A stretch of DNA of 64,000 nucleotides from Eubacteriales bacterium (GCA_045632405.1 JAZQWO010000030.1:23769-87768), one strand, 5' to 3'; counted from the stretch's first letter, positions 18,646-59,920 are shown. Program-made: numbers and translations. Notes: generated by a model from the letters alone, not told the origin.

Positions 18646-18652
18646 GGTATAT

Positions 18653-37369: not shown

Positions 37370-37573
37370 ATGAAAAATATTCCTGTTTTCGGAGTCGGAG
37401 ATACGGTGGAATTGAAAAAAGCACACCCTTGCGGATGCAGTCTGTTTACCGTTTTGCGTGTAGGCTCTGACGTAAAAATTGTATGTAATGAATGCAAGCG
37501 GGCATTGATAATTGACAGAATCAAGCTCGAAAAAATGATAAAATCTATAAAAAGCGGTGAAATCAATGGATAA
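37370..37573 (+). CDS. DUF951 family small protein
   Basis: 67 aa from ATG 37370. FGVGDTVELKKAHPCGCSLFTVLRVGSDVKIVCNECKRALIIDRIKLEKMIK matches the DUF951 pattern (hPCG...w...R.GaDi.ikC..C.r...l.R...ek). Confidence 0.75.
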   Translation: MKNIPVFGVGDTVELKKAHPCGCSLFTVLRVGSDVKIVCNECKRALIIDRIKLEKMIKSIKSGEING

Positions 37574-40487
37574 CGAAATCAATGTATTAGACACCCCTGT
37601 GTGCCAGGGTAAGCCAACATTAGGGGACAAGCTACTCTCCGTTTGGAGAAAATTCAAGCGTGGCTTTTCAAACAGCCTGCGCGAAAAGAATTATTGCTAT
37701 CTTTCCTTTGCCATTCCGGTGATTATTATATATATTACTTTTATCGTGATGGGTATGTGGCCCTTTGGCAACAAGGCAATTCTTACTCTTGATATGGACG
37801 GACAGTATATTTACTTCTTCGAGCAGCTTCGCGATGTGTACACGGGCAAGGAGTCTCTCTTTTACACCTTCGAAAGGTGCTTGGGCGGTGAGTTTTTAGG
37901 CTATTTTACCTACTATCTTGCATCCCCTATTTCATTCCTTGTGGTTCTTTTCCCTGAAACTATGATAACCGAGGCGGTTATGAGTATGATGATACTCAAA
38001 AGCGGTCTTGCGGGTCTTACATTTTCCATCTATCTTGGAAGAACAAGACAGAAAAACACTGTGGGCTTCACAATGTTCTCTGTTATGTATGCTCTTTGCT
38101 CATATGCCACAATGTATCAGTTCAATGTTATGTGGATGGACGCTCTTATCTGGCTTCCCCTAATTACTCTTGGCATTGAGTCCTTGGTAAAGGATGGCAG
38201 ATTCTTACTTTTTGTTATTTCCCTTGCAATGGCAATTTGCAGCAACTACTATATCGGTTATATGCTCTGCATATACGTTGCTCTCTACTTTTTCTTTTTC
38301 ATTGCGTCAAAGCCATATGACGAGCTCAACGGAATGAATGAGAGCTATCATAGATTAAAGAGCCTTGTACGTATAGGAGTGGCCTCTGTTATTGCCTTGA
38401 TGATTGCAATGGCAATTATCCTTTCTGCATACTATTCTCTCCAATTGGGTAAGACAAGCTATCAGGATAACGCCTTTGACCCCGATTTGAGATTTGACAT
38501 CTTGCATTTGATGGCAAAGATGTTTGTAGGCTCCTTTGACACTGTAAGGCTTGAGGGCACGCCTAATGTTTACGCAGGCACTCTTATGCTTATTATGCTC
38601 CCTGTGTTCTATATGTCAAAGCGCATCAAATCAAGAGAAAAGGCTCTCTATACTGCTCTTGCTCTTATATTTATTATCAGCTTTTCTCTTAATACAATTG
38701 ACCTTGTATGGCACGGATTCCAAACTCCTGTATGGTTCAATTACAGATACAGCTTTATGTTCTCATTCATTCTCCTCTGTATGGCATACCGCGGATACGA
38801 GGAGATAGACGAGGTAAGCACAGGATTTTTGGGTAAGACAGGCGCTTTGCTGATACTGTTGGTTGTCATTATTCAAAAAACCGTGGTGCTGACAAGATAC
38901 GAGTATATTGACGGCGCTTGGACAGCGCTTAGTGTTAAGCCAGGCATTGGAATGGCGTGGCTCACAATTTTGCTTGTTCTTGCATACCTTGCAGTTTTCC
39001 TTGTAAAAAAGCACACCGACTTAAAGCGCACTGCTACTATCTTTCTATCCATTATTGTTTTTGTAGAAGCATTTGCAAATTCCGCTATTAACTGGGCGGG
39101 AGAGCTGAAGGACGGCGGATGTGCAACAAGAGATAATTACCGCGATTACGCGGTTAAGCTGGAAACTGCTGTAAACGAGGTTTACTCCAAGGACTCATCA
39201 TTCTTCCGAATGGAGCATCTTTTCTACAGAAAGCAAAACGACAATATGCTTGGTAACGTAAACGGTATGTCAGAGTTTACATCAACCTTTAACGCATCAA
39301 CAGTTAACTTTATGAAAAAGTTAGGCTTTTTCACATCTGACCCAACCGTTAAATATGTGTCTGGCAACCCAGTTGCCGATGCTTTGCTCGGTGTCAAATA
39401 CGTTATCGGCACAAGCGAGGAGGATACAAACGGCAACTTGCCAGGGCTCAGTAGTGTATATTCAGGCTACTCCTCTGTTACAACCGAGAGTGGATTTGTA
39501 ATTTATGAAAATCCATATGTATTGCCTATTGCATACAGAGTTGAAAAGAACATCAACAAATTATTCGACGAGCACCAATTCTACGGTGGAGACAAATCTC
39601 CCTTTGCAACCTTAAATCACATTATGAGCAGTATGCTCGGCCGTGACACATACGCATTTGAGACGTGCCATTACACCACAAGCAAGGGCTCTCTCAGTGG
39701 CATTGATTACGATGACAACGGTGGCATTAGCTTCCGCCGTGGCTCAGGAAGTGATTCTTCTTATTTCTACTTTACCGTACAGGCAGCACACGATGGCAAC
39801 ATTTATATGTATTTGCCGTCCCCATACACAACCGCTGCTACCTTGAAGGTAAATGGCAAATCAATTTTTACAAATATGTTCCAGGGTGAAACCAAGAGGA
39901 TTATTGACCTTGGCTCATACAAAAAGGGAGAGGTTGTGCGCGTCGAGCTTTCCTTCTCTCATTACAGACTTTATTTGTGGGACACCAAGGATTATTTTGT
40001 ACAGATAAATGAAGCTGTGCTGAAGGAAGCGACCGACACCTTGAAGGCAGGCGGCTTGCAGATTAAGGAATATTCCGATACAAGCTTCACAGGTACATTA
40101 AACGCTGTTCGCGACGGTGCGGTATTCACATCTATTCCGTACGACTCCAACTGGCGCGTATATGTTGACGGTGAAAGAGTTGAAACATACGAAATGATTG
40201 ATGCTATGCTTGGATTTGACGTTTCCGCAGGAGAGCATCAAATCGAGTTGGTTTATGTTCATACACCATTTATTGCAGGTGTTATTATCAGTCTTGTGGG
40301 CATAGGCTTGCTTATTGTCTGGTCCATACTTGACGCAAAGTGGAGAAAAAAGCGCGTTATAGCAATTGCTACTGAGAGTGAGCTTGATTCTCTTGATACC
40401 GAAGCAACAGAGGAAGAGCTACATGATTCAGCTCACACGCAAAACAACGATGATTTAAGCGAGGAAAACAATGATATACCATCTTAA
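37566..40487 (+). CDS. YfhO family membrane protein (GT-C-type glycosyltransferase family)
   Basis: 973 aa from ATG 37566 (alternative GTG at 37557). Many TM helices in the first ~500 aa, a large extracytoplasmic domain, a final TM, then an acidic tail. The overall layout and the N-terminal LSFAIPVIIIYITFIVMGMWPFGNKAILTLDMDGQYIYFF are typical of YfhO. Confidence 0.8.
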   Translation: MDNEINVLDTPVCQGKPTLGDKLLSVWRKFKRGFSNSLREKNYCYLSFAIPVIIIYITFIVMGMWPFGNKAILTLDMDGQYIYFFEQLRDVYTGKESLFYTFERCLGGEFLGYFTYYLASPISFLVVLFPETMITEAVMSMMILKSGLAGLTFSIYLGRTRQKNTVGFTMFSVMYALCSYATMYQFNVMWMDALIWLPLITLGIESLVKDGRFLLFVISLAMAICSNYYIGYMLCIYVALYFFFFIASKPYDELNGMNESYHRLKSLVRIGVASVIALMIAMAIILSAYYSLQLGKTSYQDNAFDPDLRFDILHLMAKMFVGSFDTVRLEGTPNVYAGTLMLIMLPVFYMSKRIKSREKALYTALALIFIISFSLNTIDLVWHGFQTPVWFNYRYSFMFSFILLCMAYRGYEEIDEVSTGFLGKTGALLILLVVIIQKTVVLTRYEYIDGAWTALSVKPGIGMAWLTILLVLAYLAVFLVKKHTDLKRTATIFLSIIVFVEAFANSAINWAGELKDGGCATRDNYRDYAVKLETAVNEVYSKDSSFFRMEHLFYRKQNDNMLGNVNGMSEFTSTFNASTVNFMKKLGFFTSDPTVKYVSGNPVADALLGVKYVIGTSEEDTNGNLPGLSSVYSGYSSVTTESGFVIYENPYVLPIAYRVEKNINKLFDEHQFYGGDKSPFATLNHIMSSMLGRDTYAFETCHYTTSKGSLSGIDYDDNGGISFRRGSGSDSSYFYFTVQAAHDGNIYMYLPSPYTTAATLKVNGKSIFTNMFQGETKRIIDLGSYKKGEVVRVELSFSHYRLYLWDTKDYFVQINEAVLKEATDTLKAGGLQIKEYSDTSFTGTLNAVRDGAVFTSIPYDSNWRVYVDGERVETYEMIDAMLGFDVSAGEHQIELVYVHTPFIAGVIISLVGIGLLIVWSILDAKWRKKRVIAIATESELDSLDTEATEEELHDSAHTQNNDDLSEENNDIPS

Positions 40488-47364: not shown

Positions 47365-48459
47365 ATGAAACTTGGTATTGTTGGTTTGCCTAATGTTGGC
47401 AAAAGTACACTTTTTAATGCTTTGACTAATGCGGGTGCGCAGAGCGCAAACTACCCGTTCTGCACAATTGAGCCAAACGTTGGCGTTGTTATGGTTCCCG
47501 ACTCACGTCTTGATGTGCTTGCAGAGATGTACAAGCCTGAAAAGTACACTCCTGCGGTTATTGAGTTTGTTGATATTGCAGGTCTTGTTAAGGGCGCTTC
47601 CAAGGGCGAGGGGCTTGGTAATAAGTTCCTTTCCCACATTCGTGAGGTTGATGCTATTGTGCACGTTGTCCGTTGCTTTGAAAACAGCGATATCATCCAC
47701 GTGGACGGTGATATTAACCCAATCCGCGACCTTGAAACTATAAATTTTGAGCTTATTCTTTCCGATATGGAAATTCTTGAAAGAAGAATTGATGCGGTTA
47801 AGAAGGCTATGAAGGGGGACAAAACCTTAGCTCCAAAGCTTGACCTTTATGAGCGCGTTATGAAGGCGCTTGAGGAAGGCAAGAGCGCACGCAGTCTTGA
47901 TTATGATGACGAGGAAAGAGCTTGGATTTCCGAGGTTGCTCTCCTGACAATCAAGCCTGTTATTTATGCGGCTAACATCAGCGAGGACGATCTTGCATCC
48001 GATTTGAGCGATAACAAGTTCTACCAGAGTGTTTTGGAGTTTGCAAAGAGCGAAAAGAGCGAGGTTATTCCTGTTTGCGCAGGCATAGAGGCTGAAATTG
48101 CGGAGCTTGACGATGAGGAAAAGAAAATGTTCCTCTCCGACCTTGGCATTGAAGAAAGCGGTCTTGACAAGCTCATTAAGGCAAGCTATTCTCTCCTGGG
48201 TCTTATCAGCTATTTGACAGCAGGCCCTCAAGAGGTACGCGCTTGGACAATTACAAAGGGTACAAAAGCACCACAGGCGGCAGGCAAAATCCACTCCGAC
48301 TTTGAGCGCGGATTTATCAGAGCCGAGATTGTTGCATTTGACGATTTGATTGCTTGCGGCACAATGACCGCCGCCAAGGAAAAGGGCTTGGTTCGCTCCG
48401 AGGGTAAGGAATATGTAATTGCCGACGGAGATATAGTTCTCTTCAGATTTAACGTATAA
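47365..48459 (+). CDS. ychF: Redox-regulated ATPase YchF
   Basis: 364 aa. G1 GLPNVGKST, DIAGLV, and a C-terminal TGS domain. Canonical length. Confidence 0.95.
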   Translation: MKLGIVGLPNVGKSTLFNALTNAGAQSANYPFCTIEPNVGVVMVPDSRLDVLAEMYKPEKYTPAVIEFVDIAGLVKGASKGEGLGNKFLSHIREVDAIVHVVRCFENSDIIHVDGDINPIRDLETINFELILSDMEILERRIDAVKKAMKGDKTLAPKLDLYERVMKALEEGKSARSLDYDDEERAWISEVALLTIKPVIYAANISEDDLASDLSDNKFYQSVLEFAKSEKSEVIPVCAGIEAEIAELDDEEKKMFLSDLGIEESGLDKLIKASYSLLGLISYLTAGPQEVRAWTITKGTKAPQAAGKIHSDFERGFIRAEIVAFDDLIACGTMTAAKEKGLVRSEGKEYVIADGDIVLFRFNV

Positions 48460-48465
48460 AACCGA

Positions 48466-48502
48466 AAACGGATTTCCCGAAAAGGAAATCCGTTTCTTTT
48501 TT
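48466..48502. terminator. Bidirectional rho-independent terminator
   Basis: AAACGGATTTCC-cgaaaa-GGAAATCCGTTT then CTTTTTT. 12-bp stem. Confidence 0.8.
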
Positions 48503-48508
48503 ATCTTA

Positions 48509-51175
48509 TTACAATTCCCTAAAAACAACTACGTCTGTTATTTCCTCGGGAATAAAGCATCTCTCCACCACCACTAAGTGCAAAACAGTGCAAGCAAAGC
48601 CATTCACAACTATATCTTCATCCTCACCGTGTTTGTATTGTGGGTAATACTTTGTTATATAGATTGTATTGTTCTTAACTGTAAAATCCTTAAAGCCCCC
48701 ATATGCTAGCATATCGTAACCCTCTTTATAGCATATGGCTAAAACAACGGAGCTGTCAAACACGTTATCAAGCACGCCATACTCTACGTTTCCTGTATAT
48801 TTCTCGTACAAAAGGTCAAGCTCTTGCTTGCTCGTTATCAGTTTCCAAGAAAAATCAGGTATTGCACTAAGCCCGTCACTTGTGGTAAAGGTTAAGGTCA
48901 AATGCTCAGACTCGATATAGTCATAGCCAGGATATTCCTCATCCCAATCCATTGCGTAGTGCTTTTCGATAAAGTAAATAGTATCCATTCCGCCCTCAAA
49001 GTGCGCTTTTTCAACGGCGATAAAGTAAATGGTTGGGTTCATTGCCGCACCACCCATATGTCCTTCAACTCGCTTGTCAATATACATCACTCTGTCGCCT
49101 ACTCGCACGTTACAAAACGCAGTTGAGCTATTGCAAGCAGTACAAGGCTCGTATTGATAATATGCAATCACATTCCAAATTTCAAAATCGATGCTTGGGT
49201 AAACCTCAAAATTGGTATGCTCCGCTAAGAATTCCTCGTATGCCTCTTGGCTTTCAATTACCGTGTACTCGTTTTTTGGCACTTTAGCGATAGTGTTACC
49301 TTCATAGTGAGAGGCAAAAAAGCTACTGTTATACTGCACTATCCTCTCGGGAGCATCCAAAACCTTGGCATACTGCTGACGGTATTTTAGCAGATGTACC
49401 GTTACCTCCCTCTCTGTACAATTAAGGCTGGACAGCGGTATTCTTGTCACATAAAGCCTTGGTGCATATTCCACTCCATAGTCTATATAGTTCATTTCAA
49501 TATAAACATTGTTTTCATTAGATTGGCAATCTAAAAAGCGTGTATCATAGGGGGCTTTGCCGTAATACACAAGCAAGAACTCACCCTTTTTCATATTTCT
49601 GCTCACATCAATGCCTGTTGCAAGTCTGACCTCTTGGGCATCTGCACCCTCAACCACCATCCAAACGGAGTCCATGCTTGGGGTGTATCCCTCACCAATA
49701 TTTCCGTATACGGTAGTATAGTAATGTTCCTCATCGTCAATGTCGCTGAACACAAGGTAAGTACCGCCTATGTTGTCACCTCTGTCCATAATATCAACCT
49801 TGTCCTTTGGTACTGATACATAGCAATATTGGGATTGGAAGTCCTTTGCTTCAAAAAGTTCTTCCTGCTTATTTAGCTCGCCTTCGTCTCTGCGGTTGAA
49901 TCGACTATCGTCATCCATATAGACAGTAAGCACGCCGTCTGCACTAAGTACAAGTCTTCTTATACCCAAGGTATAAAGAGGCGAGTATCCGTCAAGGCGC
50001 AAAACAACTACGTAATTATTTTCAAAATAGCTCTCTTCAAGATATGGGTTTTCCACATATACGTCAAGCATTGACTTTGATGTGATAATATGGTACGCCA
50101 TACCCTTTGGTAGTTGACTGTCATAATAATATATTCCCAAATCCAACAGGTCATAGTAGTCATCGGATTTTTCGTTTACTATTACTGTATTTGTAATAAT
50201 TTTCTCGTAGCTATACTCGTGGCAAATAAGCATACGCTCAGTAAAGTTCGAGCTTGTATAGCTCTCTGAGGCTAACATTTCTTTCGGTATTGCTATAAGC
50301 TCAAGCACAGGAGTGTTTGAATATTCCGCATCGCTCTTATAAAGACGCTCGATACTCAAATGTCCCTCAAGGGAAGAAAGAACGTTATAGCCAAGTGAGG
50401 CAGGAGTATTTACATCAAGAACACGAGCTATAACCTTATACGCCTCTGTTATTTCAAATTGTGGCAAGATATCAACATCTTTTTCTGACAAAAACTCTGT
50501 GATTTCTCGCTCTTCCAAAAGATATGCGGTGTTTGGCGCAAGAGTTGAATTCGTCAACGGTATTTGCATCATTTGCAAAAATTCAACCTCTTCTCTTTGT
50601 ATATCCATCAAGCCGCCAACGGCTGAGCTTTCCTCGAATACAATATCTTCCTTTGGAATTAATAAATATACAGTTTCACACACAATCTCGCCCTCTCGGG
50701 AAACGGTTGGCTCTACTTCTAAAGTCTTTATAGACGTTCTTTTTCCGTCAAAGGTAAAATCATAATATCCTACTGCCTCGTAGCTATCGCAAATGCGGTA
50801 GGTATGGAGTGCCAAAACAACATTTTCTTCAAATATGGTGCTTGAATAGCCCGCTCCCCCTGATGTCTTTGCAGTTAGCTCCTCGTGAGTATCTATTATC
50901 CTATACTCATAGGTATTCAAGGCAATGCGGGCAAAGTCTGCTGCTTCAAATCTACCGCAGTCTATCATTGGATAAAATTCGTCAGCTTTTTCTTCAATAT
51001 AGAGTGCTAATGGGGTGTTTTCCTCTTTATTGTTCTCTTTATCGGGCGTGCCTGCCACTGAACTTGACGAGCTATCTCCTGTGGGAGTGCTGCTATTATC
51101 AGTATGAATTGTGCCACAGGACACAATTAAAAGAATAACTAATAGTGCGATTATCATGGTTAATATTTTCTTCAT
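48509..51175 (-). CDS. Large lipoprotein of unknown function, six tandem ~130-150-aa modules (paralog B)
   Basis: 888 aa from ATG 51175 (SD AGGAGAG). Lipobox LLIVSC|G and a Ser-rich linker. Six repeated modules colinear with the upstream paralog (see findings). Confidence 0.75.
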   Translation of the reverse strand: MKKILTMIIALLVILLIVSCGTIHTDNSSTPTGDSSSSSVAGTPDKENNKEENTPLALYIEEKADEFYPMIDCGRFEAADFARIALNTYEYRIIDTHEELTAKTSGGAGYSSTIFEENVVLALHTYRICDSYEAVGYYDFTFDGKRTSIKTLEVEPTVSREGEIVCETVYLLIPKEDIVFEESSAVGGLMDIQREEVEFLQMMQIPLTNSTLAPNTAYLLEEREITEFLSEKDVDILPQFEITEAYKVIARVLDVNTPASLGYNVLSSLEGHLSIERLYKSDAEYSNTPVLELIAIPKEMLASESYTSSNFTERMLICHEYSYEKIITNTVIVNEKSDDYYDLLDLGIYYYDSQLPKGMAYHIITSKSMLDVYVENPYLEESYFENNYVVVLRLDGYSPLYTLGIRRLVLSADGVLTVYMDDDSRFNRRDEGELNKQEELFEAKDFQSQYCYVSVPKDKVDIMDRGDNIGGTYLVFSDIDDEEHYYTTVYGNIGEGYTPSMDSVWMVVEGADAQEVRLATGIDVSRNMKKGEFLLVYYGKAPYDTRFLDCQSNENNVYIEMNYIDYGVEYAPRLYVTRIPLSSLNCTEREVTVHLLKYRQQYAKVLDAPERIVQYNSSFFASHYEGNTIAKVPKNEYTVIESQEAYEEFLAEHTNFEVYPSIDFEIWNVIAYYQYEPCTACNSSTAFCNVRVGDRVMYIDKRVEGHMGGAAMNPTIYFIAVEKAHFEGGMDTIYFIEKHYAMDWDEEYPGYDYIESEHLTLTFTTSDGLSAIPDFSWKLITSKQELDLLYEKYTGNVEYGVLDNVFDSSVVLAICYKEGYDMLAYGGFKDFTVKNNTIYITKYYPQYKHGEDEDIVVNGFACTVLHLVVVERCFIPEEITDVVVFREL

Positions 51176-51225
51176 AGCTATTCTCTCCTTTCTTTTCTGT
51201 CTGACAGAAATGAAGCTAATCGGCT

Positions 51226-54003
51226 TTATAGCCAATCAATTTCGCAGGTATCGACTACCTCGTTAATTTCCTCAGGGGTGAATATTTTTTCTACTGCAAT
51301 CAAGTGAAGCACTGTGTACATGCCATCATTGCCTGAGATCATCCCATTTGCTTCAATATATTTGTCAATGAAAATTTTGTTATTCTCAACACGCATATTT
51401 CTAAAGCCGCCCAAAACCAAGGATGAATCATACATTCTTACGTAGGCAACTATGCACATTTTTTCAAAATCAAGGTTTAAAAGTGCGTCAAGTCCGTTAT
51501 TTTCAGTGTATTTTGCGTAAATTTCTTCAAGTGCCTCTTTACTTTCGATTATTGCATAATCAAAGTCGGGCAATTCCTTAAGGTTATCTATAATGTGAGC
51601 GGTATATTCGGAATTTACTCTTTTGTGCTCTGACACGGAATACGTGTTCTTTTGAAGCACAACCGCATTTGTAACCTCGCCTGTTACCTTTTCTTTAGGT
51701 ATTACAATAAAGTATAGACACGGTGACTCAGCTTCTCCGCCGCCATGGTTATCATAATATTTATCAATATACAGGCATCCGTTTCCGTATCTTACATTTT
51801 CAAAGGATGCGGCACTATGACATTCTATACAGCCCTCCACTTTATAGTGTGCAAGAACATATGCAGTTTCAAAATCAATGTCCTTCAGCTGTGCGGTTGG
51901 GTATATGCCGCCATACTCTGCAAACACCTCTGATAGTGTGTCGTAATTATCTATGAGCTTCCATTCAAAGTCAGGTGCTTTGCGCAAGCCAACCTCTGCA
52001 TCGTTGCTAAGCACGTAGCTATACAGAGATTCTGTCAAATATTCGCCGCGGCGGATGCTTGCAGGCTCTCTTGTATATTTTGTTATGTTCATTTTGTACT
52101 TCTGTGCTTCGTTGTAGCCTATAAAGTTATCCAGCTTAATTACATAGTAATAACCCTTGGGCTCTTCCTTGCCTGCATCCTGTACTATGTCAAGATACAT
52201 TTTATTGCCGTCTATACGGAAATTATAGAATCTCGGATTTGTGCGAAGCTTGCCGTAAAATACAAGATAAAGCTCACCGTTTCCTAAGGTTGTGATATAT
52301 GGATTTAAATCAATATTTAATAGTGATTCGAGCGCATCTCTTTCTGCATAGGTTTTAGCCGCCCAAACCTGGTTAAGTGCCGCATATGGCGTTGAGAGGC
52401 CTGTAAAGCTATGGGAGTGTGCGTCCTCGTCACTCACCTTTGTCAATTTAATGTTACCTGTAAGCGCCTGACCCTCAATATTAAGCTCTTCTCTCGACAC
52501 TAAGATGTAAAGAACATTGTCGGGGTATTGATTTATAATCTCTAATTCCTCGTCATCACGGCAGTAGCCTATGTCTGCCGTGGCGCAAAGAACTCCGATT
52601 TCATCGAAGTGAAGGTCGCGTATGCCGTATACAATGCGTTCAAGTCTTTCGTAATCATAGCCGTCTATCTTGACTGCCACAACGTAATTACTGCTCATTT
52701 CCTCTGCTGAAATGAAAGGATTTGCCACATATTGCTTTAATTCCTCGTAGCTTGTGATTATGCGGTATGCATCACCTACGGGGAGCTTATCATAATAGTA
52801 GTAAATACCAAGGTCAAGGAATTCGTAGTAATTGTAGGTCTTTTCCTCTACGTTTGCCATGTTGGAAAGGTCAATATCGCTTCTTTCCGGAGATGAGCTT
52901 ACGTGCTCAATGCTTGTTACACTTATGGCATTTATATTTTCCGGTTGCTCCTTGAAAACGTAATTTGGAATTGCTACAAACTCAAAGCCTTGTATATTTT
53001 TCGTTCTAGGTGAATATGTTTCGTACTCTCTTGTAATATAAAGAGTATCGCCCTCAACAGATGCGTTTTTGTAGCCAAAGGGTTTGTCGCTAAAGCTGAT
53101 GCCTGTTCCCATATCCTCGTGATATATTATCAAAATTTTATAGGCGGTGCTACAATGGTAATAGTCGCACTGACAGTCACAGGTACGATTCCAAGTAACA
53201 CTAAGTCTATTGTCGCTTAAAAACTGCTTAAGCTCGGCAGGCTCAATCAACCAGGATTGACCGTTTTCATAGCCTCTATTGTCTTTCACGGAGCAATAAG
53301 CAGTATCATAAGTATGAGTTGCATTTGATGAAATGCTAAGCTTGCCCCATGTCGGCAAGGAATATTCCTCACCTGTGCTTTGTTCTATCTCGCTGTATTT
53401 ATCTACCGCTTCGCGTGGAATTAAAACATAGTGCAAATCAACCCACTCTCCGCTCACAGTATCCAAAAAATCAGCATCCCAATAGCAACGGTCGATAGTA
53501 ACCATTCCTCTTGATAATCTGAAGTTCTTGTAGCCGAGAAAATTACCGATCACGTTTTCCCTGAATCTATAAGAACGGTATATTGCCATAACGTAGTTAT
53601 CTTCAAATATTTCCTCTTTATAGTCGCAACCGCGCTCTGTTTTGGCGCAAAGCTCCTTGTAGGTTTTAATAATTGAATAATAGCAATTTAACTCTTGTGC
53701 CCCGTTAAATTCGTCACCAAAATATTCGCCGCACAGAAGTGTTGGGTAATATTCGGTTTTTTCGCCCCCAAAGGTAGCAAGCAGCTTTTTTTCATTCTCG
53801 GGGATTTCGTCATTTGGGTCATCTACCTTGTCCTCTCTGCTGCTTGATGACGGAATATCAGCAACCACATCATTTTGGCTTGACTGTGTGCCAAGCACAT
53901 CCTCGCTGCTGCCTGTTGTACCTGAATTAGCACCGCTATCTCCACAAGAGATTAACAAAAGTGTCAATGCTAAAGCTATTAGTAATACTATAAATTTTTT
54001 CAT
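51226..54003 (-). CDS. Large lipoprotein of unknown function, six tandem ~130-150-aa modules (paralog A)
   Basis: 925 aa from ATG 54003 (SD GGGAG). Lipobox LLLISC|G and a Ser/Asp-rich linker. Colinear with paralog B along its full length, e.g. YYEFLDLGIYYYYDKLPVGDAYRIITSYEELKQYV versus YYDLLDLGIYYYDSQLPKGMAYHIITSKSMLDVYV. Confidence 0.75.
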   Translation of the reverse strand: MKKFIVLLIALALTLLLISCGDSGANSGTTGSSEDVLGTQSSQNDVVADIPSSSSREDKVDDPNDEIPENEKKLLATFGGEKTEYYPTLLCGEYFGDEFNGAQELNCYYSIIKTYKELCAKTERGCDYKEEIFEDNYVMAIYRSYRFRENVIGNFLGYKNFRLSRGMVTIDRCYWDADFLDTVSGEWVDLHYVLIPREAVDKYSEIEQSTGEEYSLPTWGKLSISSNATHTYDTAYCSVKDNRGYENGQSWLIEPAELKQFLSDNRLSVTWNRTCDCQCDYYHCSTAYKILIIYHEDMGTGISFSDKPFGYKNASVEGDTLYITREYETYSPRTKNIQGFEFVAIPNYVFKEQPENINAISVTSIEHVSSSPERSDIDLSNMANVEEKTYNYYEFLDLGIYYYYDKLPVGDAYRIITSYEELKQYVANPFISAEEMSSNYVVAVKIDGYDYERLERIVYGIRDLHFDEIGVLCATADIGYCRDDEELEIINQYPDNVLYILVSREELNIEGQALTGNIKLTKVSDEDAHSHSFTGLSTPYAALNQVWAAKTYAERDALESLLNIDLNPYITTLGNGELYLVFYGKLRTNPRFYNFRIDGNKMYLDIVQDAGKEEPKGYYYVIKLDNFIGYNEAQKYKMNITKYTREPASIRRGEYLTESLYSYVLSNDAEVGLRKAPDFEWKLIDNYDTLSEVFAEYGGIYPTAQLKDIDFETAYVLAHYKVEGCIECHSAASFENVRYGNGCLYIDKYYDNHGGGEAESPCLYFIVIPKEKVTGEVTNAVVLQKNTYSVSEHKRVNSEYTAHIIDNLKELPDFDYAIIESKEALEEIYAKYTENNGLDALLNLDFEKMCIVAYVRMYDSSLVLGGFRNMRVENNKIFIDKYIEANGMISGNDGMYTVLHLIAVEKIFTPEEINEVVDTCEIDWL

Positions 54004-54121
54004 AGTTGTTTCTCCCTTCAAATTTTGCCTTTCACCCTAATAGACGGAAAAGTGTGTTGATTGGTTACAACTTTTTTGAATTTTTTTTGATTTTTTTGTG
54101 AAAAGTATCCTAATATAGCAA

Positions 54122-54160
54122 CAAAAAAGGCAAATACAGAAAAAATTCCGCATTTGCCTT
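54122..54160 (-). terminator. Rho-independent terminator after the alpha/beta hydrolase gene
   Basis: AAGGCAAAT (54127-35) and ATTTGCCTT (54152-60), 16-nt loop. The minus-strand transcript continues with TTTTGTT. Confidence 0.5.
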
Positions 54161-54164
54161 TTAT

Positions 54165-55142
54165 TTATTTTGTAGTTGGAACAGGCAAGCTACTTAAAAG
54201 CTCGGCGATTGCATTATCGTACCTTTCAGTATCGGTAATACGGAGCATAGAGTGTCTGCCGTGGTCGAACCAGACGAGCTTTTTATTTTTTGAGCCAGCC
54301 TTATCAAATAGCTTTTGAGCGTATTCGGGAGTGGAATATATATCTTCCTTACTATGTAGCATTAAGAGTGGCGTCTGAAGCTTATCTATAACGTCAATAG
54401 GGCCTTTTTTCATTGAGTGACCCGTGTACTTTTTCATCCACATATTAACAAGCATAAAGGTTGGAAAAACCACCCTTCTTTGCTCTCGCATATGATTTTT
54501 CACGGACTCGCCGAAGTTAGGGAACATACCCTCAGCAACAAGGGCGTCAACTATTGGCGGACAGTCGCGTGTGGTGAGCGCCAGCAAGCCACCTGCTGAG
54601 CCAATGCAAATGCCGTGCAAAACAACTGAGGAAATACCCTTTTCCTCGTGGAGCATTTTAATCCAAGCGGCATAGTCACCGCTTTCCTCAAATCCCACTG
54701 TATTATAAGTACCGTCGCTCAAGCCGTGGGCGCGAGGGTCTGTGACTAAAATATTACAGCCGTTTTTTGCATATGGTATGGCAAAATAATAGCCGTAGCG
54801 AAGGCTCTCCGTTCTGCCTGACAAAATGATTGCGCATCTGTCATAGCCGAAATCGTAATACTCTCCGTACAGATTCAAGCCACCGCTGACAATATGCACG
54901 TCCTCTTTTTTGTCCTTGTTTTGCTGTGCCCACGCCAAGCCTGTATCATACATCGAAATATGATCGGGCTCCATTTCGCTGGGCAAGTCGCGTCCCCATT
55001 GCTCTTTTTTTCTCCTTTTCAATGTACATACATACACAAAGTACGATGCAACAACAAAGGAAATCATCCAGAAAATGAGCAACGATATTACAAAGCCGAC
55101 AACTGACCATATAAATGCGGGGTGGGTCAAAAAATCTGTCAT
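54165..55142 (-). CDS. Membrane-anchored alpha/beta hydrolase with Cys in the nucleophile elbow
   Basis: 325 aa. N-terminal TM FIWSVVGFVISLLIFWMISFVVASYFVYV. RAHGLSDG, nucleophile elbow H-G-I-C-I-G-S (GxCxG instead of GxSxG), and candidate Asp (HSKEDIY) and His (DHGRHSM). Confidence 0.7.
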   Translation of the reverse strand: MTDFLTHPAFIWSVVGFVISLLIFWMISFVVASYFVYVCTLKRRKKEQWGRDLPSEMEPDHISMYDTGLAWAQQNKDKKEDVHIVSGGLNLYGEYYDFGYDRCAIILSGRTESLRYGYYFAIPYAKNGCNILVTDPRAHGLSDGTYNTVGFEESGDYAAWIKMLHEEKGISSVVLHGICIGSAGGLLALTTRDCPPIVDALVAEGMFPNFGESVKNHMREQRRVVFPTFMLVNMWMKKYTGHSMKKGPIDVIDKLQTPLLMLHSKEDIYSTPEYAQKLFDKAGSKNKKLVWFDHGRHSMLRITDTERYDNAIAELLSSLPVPTTK

Positions 55143-55792
55143 TTTTTTCTCCTTGATTCTTTTGCCTTAATTTTCTCAAGCCTTGCGCGAAGCTCCGCTA
55201 CCTTGGCAAAAACGTAATTATTTATTGCTTCAAGCTCTTCTCTTGTGGGAGTTCTGCGGTTTGATGTTATAAAGCCTGAGATATCTATTTCCTTGCCTAC
55301 TATAACTCTTGCGCGCTTAAAAAGACCGTAATTACCGTCTGTGACGATAGGTACTATGGGTGCGCCCGCACGGTAGGCAATAACAATATAGCTTTTTTTG
55401 AACTCATGCAGCTTGCCGTCGGGAGTGTTTTGCCCCTCGGGGTAAATCTGCACAAGCTGACCCTTTTTGATAACATCTGCCGCTATGTCCATAAAGCGCA
55501 TGCTTTTTGTTTCTCGGTTAGCCTCAATAGCGCCGAAAAAGCGCATACCGAAGCGGGTAATTCGGCTCTTGAAGGGCATTTCAGATGCAACCACATTTAA
55601 TTTCCTGGGAAATACAACAAATGAGGTCAAAACGTAATCAAACATATTATAGTGATTTGTTATTATCAGCTTGCCGCCCTTTTTTAGGTTTGTGCTTGCC
55701 TTATCCTCGTAGTAGGTTTTTCTCTTGAAGAAAAGCCACTGAATTGGATAGCCCAAAATCAAGCCTATAATACGAAAAATTTTATATATCAT
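55139..55792 (-). CDS. Lysophospholipid acyltransferase, PlsC/LPLAT family
   Basis: 217 aa. HX4D motif NHYNMFD and motif III YPEGQ, with an N-terminal hydrophobic segment. ATGA overlap with the downstream hydrolase and TAATG overlap with the upstream MFS gene. Confidence 0.8.
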   Translation of the reverse strand: MIYKIFRIIGLILGYPIQWLFFKRKTYYEDKASTNLKKGGKLIITNHYNMFDYVLTSFVVFPRKLNVVASEMPFKSRITRFGMRFFGAIEANRETKSMRFMDIAADVIKKGQLVQIYPEGQNTPDGKLHEFKKSYIVIAYRAGAPIVPIVTDGNYGLFKRARVIVGKEIDISGFITSNRRTPTREELEAINNYVFAKVAELRARLEKIKAKESRRKK

Positions 55793-57144
55793 TATTTTTT
55801 ATCGTTTTCGCCAAAGGATTCCTCTGAATTTTCCTTGCCCATATAAGCAATTTCGGGCTTAAAGGCAAAGGACATACCAAATGCGCTCATGCAGCAAACG
55901 GCAACGATAATAGGCAAGAGGGAAATAACGTTATTAGCCTTGAGTGCAACAAGAATCAAGCCTGTTGCAACACCTGCGGCAACGCCCTCGAAAAGACCCT
56001 GAACCGCAAAAAGCATGGATGCAATTTTTTTGCCTGATCTTTTTTCCTCATTAACTGCCAGATGTGATGGTACTGTATATGTGATTGAGAAAAACGCACC
56101 GATTGCAAAGGACACAAAAATGCCGCCGCAAATTGCCACCAAGGTGAGCTGCAATTCCGTCATATTATCGGAATTAATGTTGCAGAAGAACATGATGAGC
56201 ATACCTATTGAGAACACGGAAAGCACATATCTGTATGCAAAGCCAAGTCCTTTTTTCTTAACTATGTAGTTATAAAGAATAATGGTTAGCGGAACAGGCA
56301 CAAAGGATGACGCCATAACGAAGGTCATATTCAAGCCTGTTGAGGAAAACAGCTCGTTAATACCACCGAGGAAGAGCTGAAGACCGATTGTCATAACAGA
56401 GGATGTAAACATCCAATAAATGAACGGCTTATTTGTCATAGCGGTGCCAAGAGCCTTACCGAGTGTAAGAGCGCGCACGGACTTTTCGTCTCCGTCCTCG
56501 TTATGTTCCTTGAGCAAAAGCATAGGAATTATCATAGTCAAGGAAAGTGGCAAGAAAATGAGCGCTACTATACGAATGTTAATTCCCATTGAAACAAAAA
56601 CAGGAATCAACGCAAAGCCGAGAATGTAATATACTACATCGCACACAGATTTAATGTTGGACAAGTATACTGTGTCCTGCTCGTTTTGACAAACCTCGGA
56701 AAAGGTTGCGTAATATGTAAGCATTGTAAGTGTGTAGAAGGTGTAAAATACGCAAAGCATAACACCAAACCAAATGGTGTTTAAAATAGTTGCACCGCTG
56801 TTTAGTGGGAACAAAAATGCAACGTACGCCAAAACCATAGGTACGAAGCCTAAAACAAGCGCGGTTTTTCTTCTACCAAAGCGGGAATTGAGCTTGTCTG
56901 CAAATGTGGCGAGAGGCAAGTCGATGATGCCGTCAAGCGCCTTTGCAAGAAACACAAAAATTGCCCAAAGTCCTGCAACAACCAAGTCCTTGCTAAGATA
57001 CGTCCAAGACTCGATATGCTCATCAAAGCCACCAACAAGCAACGCACTGCAAAGATACGAGCCAACTATGAGTGTGAGCATGTTGACGCCCATACCCGAG
57101 CAGCCGTAAAGAGCCAATTTTTTTCTGTCTGTAATTTTTTTCAT
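55792..57144 (-). CDS. MFS transporter, glycoside-pentoside-hexuronide (GPH/MelB-like) type
   Basis: 450 aa from ATG 57144 (SD GAGGGAG; alternative ATG at 57165). 12 predicted TM helices. The loop 2-3 motif DGIIDLPLATFADKLNSRFGRRK is typical of GPH/MFS_2. Confidence 0.75.
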   Translation of the reverse strand: MKKITDRKKLALYGCSGMGVNMLTLIVGSYLCSALLVGGFDEHIESWTYLSKDLVVAGLWAIFVFLAKALDGIIDLPLATFADKLNSRFGRRKTALVLGFVPMVLAYVAFLFPLNSGATILNTIWFGVMLCVFYTFYTLTMLTYYATFSEVCQNEQDTVYLSNIKSVCDVVYYILGFALIPVFVSMGINIRIVALIFLPLSLTMIIPMLLLKEHNEDGDEKSVRALTLGKALGTAMTNKPFIYWMFTSSVMTIGLQLFLGGINELFSSTGLNMTFVMASSFVPVPLTIILYNYIVKKKGLGFAYRYVLSVFSIGMLIMFFCNINSDNMTELQLTLVAICGGIFVSFAIGAFFSITYTVPSHLAVNEEKRSGKKIASMLFAVQGLFEGVAAGVATGLILVALKANNVISLLPIIVAVCCMSAFGMSFAFKPEIAYMGKENSEESFGENDKK

Positions 57145-57157
57145 TTTTTCTCCCTCA

Positions 57158-58813
57158 TCATTCAAAAGTGACTGTCAAATCATAATTTGCTTCATAAGTT
57201 GGAATGACGGCTACCTCAACATCGTAGCCAAAGGCTTCTATTTTTTCGGAAAGCCACTCTGCTATTTCCTCGGAAATACTTTTGCCATAGAATAGACTGA
57301 CAACGCAATATTCATTTTTGCCAAGCATATTTTGCACAACACGCAGGGTAACATCCTCCAAGGTGGTGCTTACATCAAGAATTTGGTTGTTGGAAAGGGC
57401 GAAAAAATCCTTTTGCAGTATTCTCTTTTTACCAAAAACTCTATCTCTTGTAGCGCGGTAAATAGAAAGCTGATGCATGCCCGAAATCGTCTGATTTGAG
57501 GTATCAATTGCCTTTTGCAAGTCTCCCTCAAAATCCATAACGGACAAGGATGCGTAGCACTCTGCAAAGGAACGGCTATTCAACACCGCCACCTTAGCAT
57601 CGCGGCAAAGCTTGCACGCCTGCTTTGCTGACAAAATCGAATTGGAGCAATTTGGGAACACCAAAATTTTGTCCGCCAAGGTCAGCTTGAAGGCATCTAC
57701 AAAGTCCTGTGAGGATGGAGCGATTTCACTGAGAATAACAACATCTGCACCCATTTCAAAGAGTTTTTGCTGCGTTTCTCCGTTTGTAGCCACTGCCACA
57801 ACCGCAAAGCTTGCCTTTTCACGCTCAGGGTCGTAGAGGTATTTTTGCGTTTCCTCTTTTGACTTAGCCTTTTGCATCATATTTTGCACAGTCATATTAT
57901 CAATTTTAACAGTTAAAAGCTCACCGTGATTTTGCAGATATGACATAAGTCTGCCAAGGTCTTTAACGTGAACGTGTAGCTTAACCTTGTCGGTTTCCTG
58001 TGATGTAACAACACTTTCGCCAATGCCTGTTAAGGCTTTTGTGAATTCCTTCACATCAAAATTCTTTGTATCAACTGTTAGCTGAAGCAAGCCCTCGACG
58101 CAGTAGCCATATTCAAAAACAGTTTCCTTTGAGAATAGCCCTAAATCCAAAGGCTCACCTCTTGTGTCCTCACTCACCGACTTGGAGTCAAGCTCCTCAC
58201 CGTTCAAGAACTTCTGAACTCCCTCAAAGAAATAAACAATACCGCTACCGCCGCTATCAACAACGCTTGCCTTTTTGAGAATTGGCAATAGCTCAGGGGT
58301 GTTTTGAAGTGATATTCTCGCTTTGTCAAGAAAGGTATCTACTACCTTATGTATATCACTCAGTGGAAGTGCATCAATAACCGCAGATGAAGCATCCTTC
58401 AAGACCGTGAGCATCGTGCCCTCGACAGGGTTAGCAACAGATGCATATGCCTGATGACAGCCACATTGTAGCGCGTGGGCGAAGGCAACAGGGTCAGCCT
58501 CGTCTGCTCCGTCAAGCGCTTCTGCTATGCCCTTAAAAAACTGAGAAACAATAACTCCTGAGTTACCTCGCGCGCCAAATACCGCGCCTGAGGAGAAATG
58601 CTTTGCAATCTCTGACAGGGAGTCTGTTTTGTTTTTAATGGAATCAAAGCCGTATTTTAAGGTCATAACCATATTTGTTCCTGTATCACCGTCGGGAACA
58701 GGAAAAACATTCAGGTCGTTCAAAATGCTTCTGTGCCTGTCTAAATTTTTGATGCCGCTATTTAGCAAATCCACATAGTTGGCGCCTAAAATTTTAGTCA
58801 ACATATATTTCAC
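57158..58813 (-). CDS. DAK2 domain-containing protein, YloV/FakA (fatty acid kinase) family
   Basis: 551 aa. N-terminal LNDLNVFPVPDGDTGTNM is the Dak2 nucleotide-binding signature. Three-domain length matches YloV/FakA (~550 aa). Confidence 0.8.
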   Translation of the reverse strand: MKYMLTKILGANYVDLLNSGIKNLDRHRSILNDLNVFPVPDGDTGTNMVMTLKYGFDSIKNKTDSLSEIAKHFSSGAVFGARGNSGVIVSQFFKGIAEALDGADEADPVAFAHALQCGCHQAYASVANPVEGTMLTVLKDASSAVIDALPLSDIHKVVDTFLDKARISLQNTPELLPILKKASVVDSGGSGIVYFFEGVQKFLNGEELDSKSVSEDTRGEPLDLGLFSKETVFEYGYCVEGLLQLTVDTKNFDVKEFTKALTGIGESVVTSQETDKVKLHVHVKDLGRLMSYLQNHGELLTVKIDNMTVQNMMQKAKSKEETQKYLYDPEREKASFAVVAVATNGETQQKLFEMGADVVILSEIAPSSQDFVDAFKLTLADKILVFPNCSNSILSAKQACKLCRDAKVAVLNSRSFAECYASLSVMDFEGDLQKAIDTSNQTISGMHQLSIYRATRDRVFGKKRILQKDFFALSNNQILDVSTTLEDVTLRVVQNMLGKNEYCVVSLFYGKSISEEIAEWLSEKIEAFGYDVEVAVIPTYEANYDLTVTFE

Positions 58814-58820
58814 CTATAAG

Positions 58821-59753
58821 TTAATTTTCTGAAATAGCCAAGTCCATGGCTTCCTTTTCCTTCACGGAATTTTCGGTAACAGGCTCGCCCATAAAGTAGG
58901 AGCTGATCATACCCGGACCGATATTTGTGCCGCATCCGCTGAACACGTCACTGACAAAGACCTTTTTGCAAGGAATATTCTTCTCGATTTTTTCCTTGAG
59001 CAAATTAGCATATTCCTCTCTGTCGCTATGCATAATGAAAATGTACTGATTTTCAACATCGGTAGCCACGCGCTTGATATAAGACACAGTAACATCAAGT
59101 GCCTTTTTTATGCCCTTAACCTTTGCAAGCACGGAAACATAGCCGTCTGTGTTGGAGTCTCCCATTGGCTTAATACCAACAAGATTACCCATAAATGCCT
59201 TTCCGCTGGAAATCTGACCGCGACGGGCAATAAATGTAAGGTCGTCAATAGGACCCATTTGGTGTACTCTTTGCTTATTTTCCTCAAGCCAGGCAACTAT
59301 TTCCTCAAAGCTCTTGCCATTTTTCTTCATTTCGCAGGCATATGCCACCAAAAGACCGAAGGAGCCTGACATACGGTAAGAATCAAGACAGTATGTATCG
59401 ATATCAGGGTATTCCTCTTTAATGCGGTTCATAGCAGACACGGCGATATTATAGGTCGCGCTGATTTTTGAGGAAATGGACATGCTGATAATACCATAGC
59501 CCTCCTCTGCATACTTTTTGAATATCTGATAATACTCCTCAGGGCTTGCAGCCGCAGAGCTAACCTTATTTCTCTTGCTTGAAAGTGTTTTATAAAATTT
59601 ATCTCTTGTTATGTTAGTCCAGTCAAGAGATGTTCTTATACTGTCATCATTAATATGAACGTGTCCCTGTATGTAGTCGGTAAGACCAAAATAATCTCTT
59701 ATTTCCTGTGACAGGTCGCAGGTAACATCAGGTAAAATTACAAAATCCTTCAT
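58821..59753 (-). CDS. DegV family fatty-acid-binding protein (FakB-like)
   Basis: 310 aa. The pattern SSAAASPEEYYQIF...IISMSISSKISATYNIA...CLDSYRMSGSFGLLV is typical of DegV (TS.ps...f; lSs.lSgTy.sA; viDS...s.g.g). Confidence 0.85.
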   Translation of the reverse strand: MKDFVILPDVTCDLSQEIRDYFGLTDYIQGHVHINDDSIRTSLDWTNITRDKFYKTLSSKRNKVSSAAASPEEYYQIFKKYAEEGYGIISMSISSKISATYNIAVSAMNRIKEEYPDIDTYCLDSYRMSGSFGLLVAYACEMKKNGKSFEEIVAWLEENKQRVHQMGPIDDLTFIARRGQISSGKAFMGNLVGIKPMGDSNTDGYVSVLAKVKGIKKALDVTVSYIKRVATDVENQYIFIMHSDREEYANLLKEKIEKNIPCKKVFVSDVFSGCGTNIGPGMISSYFMGEPVTENSVKEKEAMDLAISEN

Positions 59754-59790
59754 TTATTAACTCCTTGTTAATTATTTAATGCCAGCTTAT

Positions 59791-59819
59791 ATTATAATAT
59801 ATATTTGAACAAATTACAA
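59791..59819 (-). promoter_or_regulatory. Sigma-A promoter of the degV/fakA operon
   Basis: On the minus strand: TTGTAA (59819..59814), 17 nt, TATAAT (59796..59791). Flanked by two copies of TGCCAGCTT (59780-88 and 59853-61 on the plus strand). Confidence 0.55.
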
Positions 59820-59920
59820 GTATTTTGTTACATTTTGTCGTTTGGTGCTCATTGCCAGCTTGAAAAAACAGTGAAAATTTACATAGGCTTTACATAACGC
59901 TGAAAAGTCCTTTAAGCATC

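Follow-up and report, generated by a model that had tools for sequence, protein, structure and literature searches.

We analysed a stretch of 64,000 nucleotides from a Eubacteriales bacterium (GCA_045632405.1 JAZQWO010000030.1:23769-87768), called the window below, in which five consecutive minus-strand open reading frames (ORFs) encode a DegV-type fatty-acid-binding protein, a FakA/YloV-type fatty-acid kinase subunit, a major facilitator superfamily (MFS) transporter, a PlsC-like acyltransferase, and a membrane-anchored enzyme with an alpha/beta-hydrolase fold, which we call the hydrolase or, after its nucleophile, the Cys enzyme. An earlier interpretation, made from the DNA without database searches (the sequence-only reading), had proposed that this operon takes up and re-acylates exogenous lipid. 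The five genes form a real, autonomous, and conserved module, and their arrangement lies far beyond chance. Two of the proteins carry linked, unusual residues at their ligand-binding or catalytic sites, and we tentatively read the module as one for acyl-lipid salvage. The features of the locus are listed in Table 1.

TABLE 1. Predicted features of the operon, numbered from the first nucleotide of the window.
Feature	Position	Strand	Open reading frame	Basis and remarks
Promoter, sigma-70-type, TTGTAA-17-TATAAT	59791..59819	-		~38 nt upstream of degV ATG; top scan match
DegV/FakB-type fatty-acid-binding protein, 310 aa, His-less with Asn277	58821..59753	-	58821-59753	PF02645, TIGR00762
FakA/YloV fatty-acid kinase catalytic subunit, 548 aa	57158..58804	-	57158-58813	ORF opens with GTG 58813; Dak2, FakA_M, and FakA_C domains
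GPH-type (MFS_2) 12-helix candidate cation-coupled transporter/flippase, 450 aa	55792..57144	-	55792-57165	PF13347, fold
PlsC/LPLAT-superfamily acyltransferase, 217 aa	55139..55792	-	55139-55792	PF01553; start overlaps MFS stop
Membrane-anchored alpha/beta-fold Cys-His-Asp enzyme, 325 aa	54165..55142	-	54165-55142	C179, D267, H297; start overlaps acyltransferase stop
Intrinsic terminator, 17-bp stem and T-run	54125..54162	-		3 nt past hydrolase stop

Gene Layout and Expression Signals

The ORFs lie where the sequence-only reading had placed them, and all five of its domain assignments held in profile searches. One predicted promoter, one terminator, and the stop/start overlaps between genes suggest that the five genes form a single, translationally coupled transcription unit. 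The fakA gene begins 7 nt after the degV stop codon (TAA, 58823-58821) if the GTG at 58813 is used, as had been assumed, and 16 nt after it if the ATG at 58804 is used. The ATG is the likelier start because the GTG falls within the sequence AGGTGA (58815-58810), which resembles a Shine-Dalgarno sequence for this ATG; the shorter gap is therefore correct only to the GTG. The 548-aa FakA and the 450-aa MFS protein are also the forms found in a public protein collection. The remaining junctions are as previously described. A gap of 13 nt separates the fakA stop codon (TGA, 57160-57158) from the MFS ATG at 57144, with GGGAG as its Shine-Dalgarno sequence, the MFS and acyltransferase genes overlap in TAATG at 55792, and the acyltransferase and hydrolase genes overlap in ATGA at 55139-55142.

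The description of one good promoter requires some qualification. The site matches the consensus at 10 of 12 positions and ranked first in our promoter scan, and promoters of the -35/-10 type, often resembling TGnTATAAT, were seen by eye directly upstream of degV in most of 55 orthologous upstream regions, but the number of promoter-like sites in the regional scan was no higher than expected from shuffled sequence (16 found vs. 17.1 expected). These 55 regions showed promoter elements only, with no conserved operator upstream of degV. The single terminator is individually strong, with a predicted RNA folding energy of -23.4 kcal/mol (z = -6.6) that none of 200 shuffled sequences equalled. A weak terminator-like site past ridA, found in the scan, sets the five-gene block apart from the upstream unit.

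Conservation of the Gene Set

Two sets of loci, numbered with the prefix L, were used for comparison. For the close set, a single genome of each species was scanned with an alignment of the MFS protein as the seed; the set holds 61 loci, all from uncultured gut metagenome-assembled genomes (MAGs) assigned to Oscillospiraceae, Christensenellaceae, Acutalibacteraceae, Faecousia, 'Eubacteriales', Bacilli, Erysipelotrichaceae, and Anaeroplasma. The distant set was obtained from a metagenome scan seeded with seven aligned distant hydrolases of the Cys clade described below, and it comprises 80 loci (termite gut, rumen, and human gut), with hydrolases that share 34-51% identity with the window enzyme. 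Public data contained 1433 homologues of the MFS protein and 959 of the hydrolase.

In 49 of the 61 species-level loci the five genes form the same colinear block, amid unrelated flanks and with intergenic distances typically of -8 to +40 nt. Three relatives with MFS proteins 69-77% identical to that of the window have the same five genes in the same order within wholly different flanks, and the MFS protein of an Oscillospiraceae MAG (L006) is 87% identical. This comparison had been suggested by the sequence-only reading, and its outcome bears out the description of the module as self-contained.

Departures from the full block affect two genes. The acyltransferase gene is missing, with the MFS gene abutting the hydrolase gene, from L033, L046, L051, L053, L058, and L061 (L063 has a weak match only, at 29% identity), and fakA is missing, with degV abutting the MFS gene, from L022, L041, and L061. 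The degV, MFS, and hydrolase genes were present throughout the close set wherever the extent of the contig allowed. Among the distant loci the order is shuffled while the gene set recurs, for example as MFS-FakA-ligase/acyl carrier protein (ACP)-acyltransferase-DegV-hydrolase, as DegV-MFS-FakA-hydrolase-zinc ribbon, as FakA-acyltransferase-DegV-hydrolase, or as DegV-hydrolase alone. Conserved content despite shuffled order strongly indicates that the genes are functionally coupled. DegV was encoded near the Cys enzyme in 56 of the 80 distant loci, at no more than 400 nt in 44 of them, and the two genes overlap stop to start in L099 (7965/7962). The DegV/Cys-enzyme pair is the oldest and tightest link of the module.

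This pattern bears on function. Since the acyltransferase and FakA are dispensable parts, re-acylation does not appear to be the core function; deacylation together with fatty-acid capture would fit as the core function, since DegV, the MFS protein, and the Cys enzyme are not among the parts that are sometimes absent.

The count of five genes holds for the conserved block, but many relatives carry a sixth gene without a counterpart in the window. Its product is a small membrane protein whose N terminus carries a zinc ribbon. The gene directly follows the hydrolase gene in 34 of the 61 close loci (including L001, L004, and L005; for example, L005 10966-11379), and often overlaps it. The gene was also found in 14 distant loci (for example, L098 8954-10039), where it additionally encodes a DUF4190 domain. 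No tblastn match to it was found in the window.

A FakB-Like Protein Without the Canonical Histidine

The DegV protein of the window matches the family profiles well (PF02645, E = 1e-53; TIGR00762, 192 bits against a cut-off of 99.7), so that its identification as FakB stands at the level of the family. It does not extend to the binding site. Alignment with 22 solved DegV/FakB relatives places Asn277 at the position of the His in their G-x-H-x-G-P-G motif. Asn277 is invariant in all 59 close orthologues, while the Ser/Thr and Arg ligand residues of DegV proteins are conserved. The same position holds Asn (48 proteins), Ser (5), or Thr (1), and never His, in the 54 alignable DegV proteins linked to the module in the distant set; two unlinked DegV paralogues on operon-bearing contigs retain the His. 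The window protein is thus best classed as an atypical FakB, belonging to a subfamily that lacks the canonical His. The corresponding residue of S. aureus FakB1, His270, lies within a hydrogen-bond network of Ser171-His270-Thr62-fatty acid carboxylate-Ser95 (PMC8892158). This network is incomplete in the window DegV.

Three loci, L120, L123, and L132 (5951-7801), have two tandem module-linked degV genes, one coding for Asn and the other for Ser at the His position. These tandem genes lie beside genes for a patatin, an MFS protein, and FakA, on the strand opposite to that of the Cys hydrolase.

The FakA protein scored above the cut-offs for all three of its domains (PF02734, PF21645, and PF13684) and for the YloV model TIGR03599 (449 bits vs. 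396), and reached 330 against a cut-off of 975 for the S. aureus equivalog model NF038248. In the orthologues whose sequences extend over them (55-56 of 56), there is no variation in its DGDTG, ARGNSG, and DSGG sequences, which we take to be nucleotide/metal motifs, or in C238/H280/H282, presumably the middle-domain Cys/His/His site.

The pair therefore shares with the FakA/FakB systems of Firmicutes (S. aureus, streptococci, and E. faecalis) a three-domain FakA, invariant catalytic motifs, a DegV-fold partner with the Ser/Thr and Arg residues, and a predicted acyl-phosphate product. It differs in the missing His of the carboxylate network and in its context: fakA usually lies between yloU and recG (as yloU-yloV-recG), whereas fakB and fakA of the window are adjacent to each other outside that context. 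The Fak systems known to us have no such genetic link to a transporter, acyltransferase, and alpha/beta enzyme. Literature searches on the gene arrangement found no published description of a Fak operon joined to such proteins, in agreement with the novelty that the sequence-only reading had suspected.

A Cysteine-Based Clade of Alpha/Beta Enzymes

The last gene of the operon had been assigned an accessory role, the trimming of a head group or an acyl chain. Our results do not uphold that assignment. Its product matches the Hydrolase_4 and Abhydrolase_1 profiles and shares with Hydrolase_4 lysophospholipases and monoacylglycerol lipases the fold, the Asp and His positions, and the Pfam family, but it differs from them in a Cys nucleophile that is found throughout the window clade (44 representative clusters and 61 + 80 loci). 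The elbow reads H176-G-x-C179-I-G181 in the 61 close orthologues (H-G-I-C-I-G in the window), and the Cys is invariant in 61 of 61 close and 80 of 80 distant loci, as are D267 and H297 among orthologues. An AlphaFold model with a predicted local distance difference test (pLDDT) score of 87 sets Cys179 between strand 172-178 and helix 180-191, that is, at the nucleophile elbow. The model has a single N-terminal helix (residues 8-41), and for 54 of 61 orthologues the positive-inside rule predicts a cytoplasmic catalytic domain. Among solved structures the serine esterase Pf2001 is the nearest, and the fold matches many other hydrolases. A phmmer alignment to Pf2001 suggested Ser182 as the nucleophile; we rejected this candidate, which is mostly Ala in orthologues, in favor of C179, which is invariant at the modelled elbow. 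The enzyme thus has the alpha/beta fold with catalytic Asp and His, and lacks the G-x-S-x-G motif of serine-nucleophile enzymes. It is best described as a part of the invariant core of the module, predicted to use Cys rather than Ser.

An exhaustive search of 1.84 billion cluster representatives placed this residue in a wider family. The motif G-x-C-x-G was present in 44 of the 48 representatives that were at least ~27% identical to the window enzyme, the other four having Ser. The 57 more distant representatives (~26% or less) had no Cys and nearly all had G-x-S-M-G, whereas the Asp and His were kept throughout. These more distant relatives are serine hydrolases anchored by a transmembrane (TM) segment. 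The split of Cys and Ser by sequence identity, with the Asp and His retained, suggests that the Cys clade was derived from TM-anchored serine hydrolases and has been kept by selection. The hydrolase Cys and the loss of the DegV His go together, co-occurring in 59 of 59 close orthologues and in all 54 alignable distant pairs. Alpha/beta enzymes with a Cys-His-Asp triad include PhaC, BAAT, and dienelactone hydrolase, with acyltransferases among them, and in PhaC and BAAT the Cys nucleophile goes with acyl transfer.

In a subset of the distant loci (L070-L149), for example L093, L096, L105, L116, L127, and L128, a subclade of the Cys enzyme occurs alone, with neither DegV nor the MFS protein nearby. 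Its gene is flanked there by those for a GT2 glycosyltransferase (offset -1/-2) and for a polysaccharide deacetylase (+1), which hints at a role of the Cys enzyme on glycan or glycolipid acceptors.

An MFS Protein Near MelB and MFSD2A

The MFS protein scored 88 bits against a cut-off of 27 for PF13347 (MFS_2). No match was found in the PDB, either with the single protein or with the family profile, even at E <= 10, and there was no NCBIfam model for it. A Foldseek search with its AlphaFold (AF2) model (pLDDT 75.8) returned MelB (TM-score 0.71-0.74) and MFSD2A (TM-score 0.67-0.76), at 13-16% identity, ahead of other MFS families. This supports the branch to which the protein had been assigned, that of MelB/GPH carriers beside Mfsd2a.

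Residues of known function give a more specific picture, with the caveat that the alignments to MelB and MFSD2A are at ~15% identity, that only helices II and IV agree between methods, and that helices I, V, and XI are of low confidence. Residues D55, D59, and T121 of the MelB cation site are equivalent to D93, D97, and T154 of human MFSD2A (PMC10013850). The window protein has D71, D75, and T138 at these positions, all invariant, by both hhalign and MAFFT. K68, at the position of MFSD2A R90, is kept together with these three as a residue common to MelB and MFSD2A, whereas the positions of MFSD2A R186 and K436 are not conserved in the alignment. The sugar ligands of MelB are replaced (D19 by N21, D124 by M141, and R149 by L175, each the residue of at least 94% of the 61 orthologues), as are K18 (by V20) and K377 (by G387); all five substitutes are family-wide, at 85-100% of the orthologues. 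The position of MelB K377/MFSD2A K436 aligns, with low confidence, to this G387, beside the invariant E386. The question that the sequence-only reading had posed, whether the protein keeps the ligands of sugar symporters, is thus answered by a fold nearest to MelB in which the sugar ligands are not retained and the cation-site Asp pair is.

Compared with MFSD2A, a Na+/lysophosphatidylcholine flippase, and MelB, a Na+/melibiose symporter, the window protein therefore has a similar fold (TM-score ~0.7), the MFS_2 profile, the helix-II D-x-x-x-D motif, and the helix-IV Thr. It differs in its low overall identity, in the replacement of MelB D19, D124, and R149, and in an E-S-W-T-Y-L motif of the TM1-TM2 loop that is invariant in its family. 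We tentatively regard it as a third, uncharacterised GPH-like branch, probably cation-coupled. The loop motif extends to E-S-W-T-Y-L...D-L-V (residues 45-55, ~56980-57012 on the minus strand) and could be a substrate- or partner-binding element without a MelB counterpart; residues 32-60 are modelled with pLDDT below 50.

We also considered homology to the E. coli lysophospholipid transporter LplT, with which the sequence-only reading had drawn a parallel. It was rejected: the hhalign probability of the family profile against LplT was 0.6%.

The Acyltransferase and Genes Recruited in Relatives

The acyltransferase matches PF01553 with 77 bits, and its best solved relative is T. maritima PlsC (5KYM, E = 1e-11). 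Its HX4D and PEG motifs are invariant among orthologues. The score for the PlsC model TIGR00530 (59) is below the cut-off (103), and an Aas-type model was equally weak. The protein appears to be a member of the LPLAT superfamily whose identity to E. coli PlsC (27%) and to the acyltransferase domain of Aas (24%) is too similar to decide between the two types.

To judge from their domains, the genes that relatives carry within or beside the block encode lipid or cell-envelope enzymes. A fusion of AMP-binding and PP-binding domains (640-655 aa), predicted to be a fatty-acyl-AMP ligase-ACP, lies exactly between the MFS and acyltransferase genes in 5 of the 61 close loci and is also found in many distant loci; the window has none. 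Two loci have a patatin-like phospholipase gene between fakA and the MFS gene, nine have a second TM-anchored hydrolase with a canonical G-H-S-x-G elbow nearby, and L063 has a neighboring GDSL-lipase lipoprotein. Additional PlsC-like acyltransferases and a protein with LRAT and phosphopantetheinyl-transferase domains are also recurrent neighbors. Several neighbors recur at fixed offsets in the distant loci, namely monogalactosyldiacylglycerol (MGDG)-synthase-like GT28 (15 loci), GT2 (16 and 8), DXD-type glycosyltransferases (11), polysaccharide deacetylases (13), and LRAT/phosphopantetheinyl-transferase proteins (9), and in L099 the GT28 gene overlaps the hydrolase stop codon. The loci behind these glycosyltransferase counts belong to related lineages of termite gut and rumen, and the counts are phylogenetically non-independent. 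No glycosyltransferase neighbor was recurrent in the 61 window-type loci.

The reduced DegV-MFS-hydrolase locus of L061 lies beside a second group of lipid genes (11939-19224, minus strand) that encodes an AMP-binding/PP-binding protein, a 626-aa MFS_2 paralogue (29% identical), two PlsC-like acyltransferases, an AMP-binding protein, an ACP, and an LRAT protein with a phosphopantetheinyl transferase. Judging by predicted domains, it seems that in bacteria of this kind MFS_2 carriers have repeatedly been combined with enzymes of acyl activation and acyl transfer.

Fusions near the module (L099 5931-6941, L076 1958-2995, and L103 2027-3076) join a PlsC-like acyltransferase to LRAT, an NlpC/P60-type Cys acyltransferase domain, or LRAT to a 4'-phosphopantetheinyl transferase. 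The latter fusion was found in nine distant and four species-level loci.

Proposed Role and Alternative Explanations

Our preferred reading, which we hold tentatively, is that the operon is a self-contained module for acyl-lipid salvage or remodelling. In the manner of MFSD2A, the GPH-type MFS protein would move an amphipathic acyl compound, such as a lysophospholipid, a monoacylglycerol, or a lyso-glycolipid, into the cytoplasmic leaflet from the outside or the outer leaflet. The membrane-anchored Cys enzyme, to judge from its triad, anchor, and orientation, would take the acyl chain onto Cys179 as a thioester and then release free fatty acid. The His-less DegV would capture the fatty acid and FakA would phosphorylate it to acyl-phosphate by the established Fak biochemistry; the acyl-phosphate would feed a putative PlsY/PlsX encoded elsewhere in the genome. 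The PlsC-like acyltransferase, where present, would re-esterify the lyso-backbone or lysophosphatidate. The net effect would be the return to membrane lipid of esterified fatty acids that are exogenous or have been turned over, in a scheme like the Lands cycle or LplT-Aas built on a Fak system.

Several observations support salvage. The catalytic domain of the hydrolase is predicted to be cytoplasmic, on the same side as DegV and FakA, and the catalytic residues of FakA, the acyltransferase, and the hydrolase are all invariant. The MFS fold is nearest to MelB and MFSD2A, with the cation-site residues kept and the sugar ligands not. The accessory genes of relatives (the acyl-AMP ligase-ACP fusion, patatin, GDSL lipase, Ser-type TM hydrolases, and LRAT) are related to lipids. 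There is also a precedent, as FakB1 has been reported to activate fatty acids that come from phospholipid turnover (PMC8892158).

Other observations weigh against salvage. The exchange of His for Asn within the FakB carboxylate network suggests that the DegV ligand may be something other than an ordinary free fatty acid, and simple ester hydrolysis does not need a Cys nucleophile. MelB and MFSD2A match the MFS protein about equally, so the fold search cannot tell a sugar from a lipid substrate. Roughly 10-17 of the distant Cys-enzyme loci have no DegV or MFS gene nearby. Finally, the module lies beside MGDG-synthase-like and GT2 glycosyltransferases and a polysaccharide deacetylase in distant loci, neighbors that suggest biosynthesis rather than salvage. 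For the MFS protein we infer both the inward direction and the lysolipid substrate, and these distant glycosyltransferases may keep an outward, biosynthetic reading alive.

That outward reading is the less likely of the two but deserves serious weight. The Cys enzyme, together with the acyltransferases, would use free fatty acid that Fak (or, in some species, the ligase-ACP fusion) has activated to build or acylate a membrane lipid or glycolipid, and the MFS protein would flip the product outward, just as the YpfP glycolipid of S. aureus is flipped by LtaA. The Cys enzyme might form its thioester directly from DegV-bound acyl-phosphate and pass the acyl chain to a lipid or sugar hydroxyl. Such a role would account for a Cys nucleophile that is invariant and derived from Ser ancestors, for the tight adjacency of the DegV and Cys-enzyme genes (overlapping in L099) and the joint change of their signatures, and for the GT28, GT2, DXD-type, polysaccharide deacetylase, and LRAT/phosphopantetheinyl-transferase genes at fixed offsets in distant loci. 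The frequent presence of a separate Ser-type TM hydrolase likewise implies that the Cys enzyme is not simply the lipase of the module, and the GPH family recognises glycosides. However, the glycosyltransferase neighbors are recurrent only in distant loci whose counts are non-independent, and the patatin and GDSL lipases fit degradation or salvage better. All characterised GPH members with the Asp pair are, to our knowledge, importers, with the exception of MFSD2B, and we know of no alpha/beta-fold enzyme that uses acyl-phosphate.

A more specific acyl relay, which we consider improbable, would have the Cys enzyme take the acyl chain as a thioester from DegV-bound acyl-phosphate made by FakA and pass it to a lyso-lipid or glycolipid acceptor, with the MFS protein flipping that lipid. 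If true, it would constitute an acyl-phosphate-dependent route of lipid acylation independent of PlsX, PlsY, and ACP, and the MFS protein would be the first bacterial lipid flippase of the GPH family.

Protection against antimicrobial fatty acids in the gut is a still poorer prospect, and we give it little credence. Here free fatty acids that are toxic would be exported by the MFS protein, or rendered harmless by the Cys enzyme and the acyltransferase, and Fak would incorporate what remains. Every locus is from a gut metagenome, and the gut is rich in free fatty acids; Fak aids the detoxification of fatty acids in staphylococci, and fatty-acid export is carried out by MFS pumps such as Tet38. 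The MFS protein of the module is nevertheless of the GPH type with a symporter-like cation site, not a DHA-type efflux pump, our survey of neighbors in the 61 loci found no linked regulator typical of efflux operons, and the ligase-ACP, patatin, LRAT, and glycosyltransferase neighbors would be left unexplained. A fortuitous juxtaposition, in which the genes for an unrelated glycoside symporter, a PlsC paralogue, and a generic esterase would by accident follow housekeeping fakB and fakA and share no function with them, is hardly credible: the proteins do belong to large families with generic names in public sources and MelB is the top fold match of the MFS protein, but colinearity in 49 of 61 species with different flanks, a gene set kept under shuffling, translational coupling, the linked DegV and hydrolase signatures, and the loss of the MelB sugar ligands all speak against it.

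Relation to Known Systems and Significance

Under the salvage reading, the closest functional parallel would be the LplT-Aas pair of E. coli. The lplT and aas genes overlap, as do the transporter and LPLAT acyltransferase genes of the window, and where the ligase-ACP fusion lies between the two (in 5 of 61 close loci and many distant ones) the predicted products would supply all three Aas/LplT activities. The differences are a GPH/MFS_2 carrier that is not an LplT homologue and, in the window, the absence of an acyl-ACP synthetase, in whose place there is Fak. LplT/Aas has been described as an envelope-repair system of Gram-negative bacteria (PMC11416262). The module is best seen as a hybrid of Fak and LplT-Aas with an MFSD2A/MelB-type carrier, rather than as a member of the LplT-Aas group.

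With ypfP-ltaA of S. aureus the module shares the genetic coupling of an MFS protein to membrane-lipid enzymes, including the MGDG-synthase/UgtP-like glycosyltransferase coupled to it in distant loci. Yet LtaA is a proton antiporter of the MFS_1 type that falls outside the top 50 fold matches of the window protein, and the window has no linked glycosyltransferase.

These results address the question of how esterified lipids, rather than free fatty acids, are acquired by Gram-positive bacteria, above all by uncultured anaerobes of the gut whose genomes are reduced. Fak is not known to require a transporter, and the module links it to a possible bacterial counterpart of the MFSD2A lysolipid flippase. 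It is a concrete and widespread candidate for esterified-lipid acquisition, with a candidate Gram-positive carrier of lysolipids or glycolipids, and it offers two sequence signatures that can be mutated: a predicted His-less FakB subfamily and a Cys-His-Asp alpha/beta clade apparently derived from serine hydrolases. The switch to Cys, the His-less FakB, the deep co-occurrence of the two, and the candidate carrier would be surprising to a lipid biochemist. If our interpretation is true, it would change models of exogenous-lipid use, of resistance to type II fatty-acid synthesis (FASII) inhibitors, and of membrane remodelling in gut Firmicutes, and it could reveal new acyl-transfer chemistry.

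Surroundings in the Window

The window comes from a spore-forming member of Clostridia. Its other genes include ridA, an ilvA-like gene, a DUF815 ATPase gene, leuB, ychF, a two-component system, GerA, ruvABC, an ECF-transporter module, truA, and a YfhO gene; no further lipid genes adjoin the five-gene block in the window. The YfhO-family gene (37557-40487, plus strand) encodes a 976-aa membrane protein and lies directly upstream of ruvA-ruvB, ~14 kb from the operon. Members of this family are presumably involved in teichoic acid glycosylation, which would be relevant only if the module acts on glycolipids.

Directly downstream of the operon terminator are two tandem paralogous genes (48509-54021, minus strand) that overlap at 51226-51235 and encode proteins of 908 and 931 aa with 29% identity. 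Both proteins have a lipoprotein signal peptide (L-L-I/V-S-C-G) and neither has a Pfam match; the pair is absent beside the module in relatives. The 908-aa lipoprotein gene is abutted by a 233-aa ORF (47827-48528, minus strand) that has no Pfam match and is largely antisense to ychF (47365-48459, plus strand). This ORF is unlikely to be a real gene; alternatively, it may be an N-terminal extension with a wrongly placed start.

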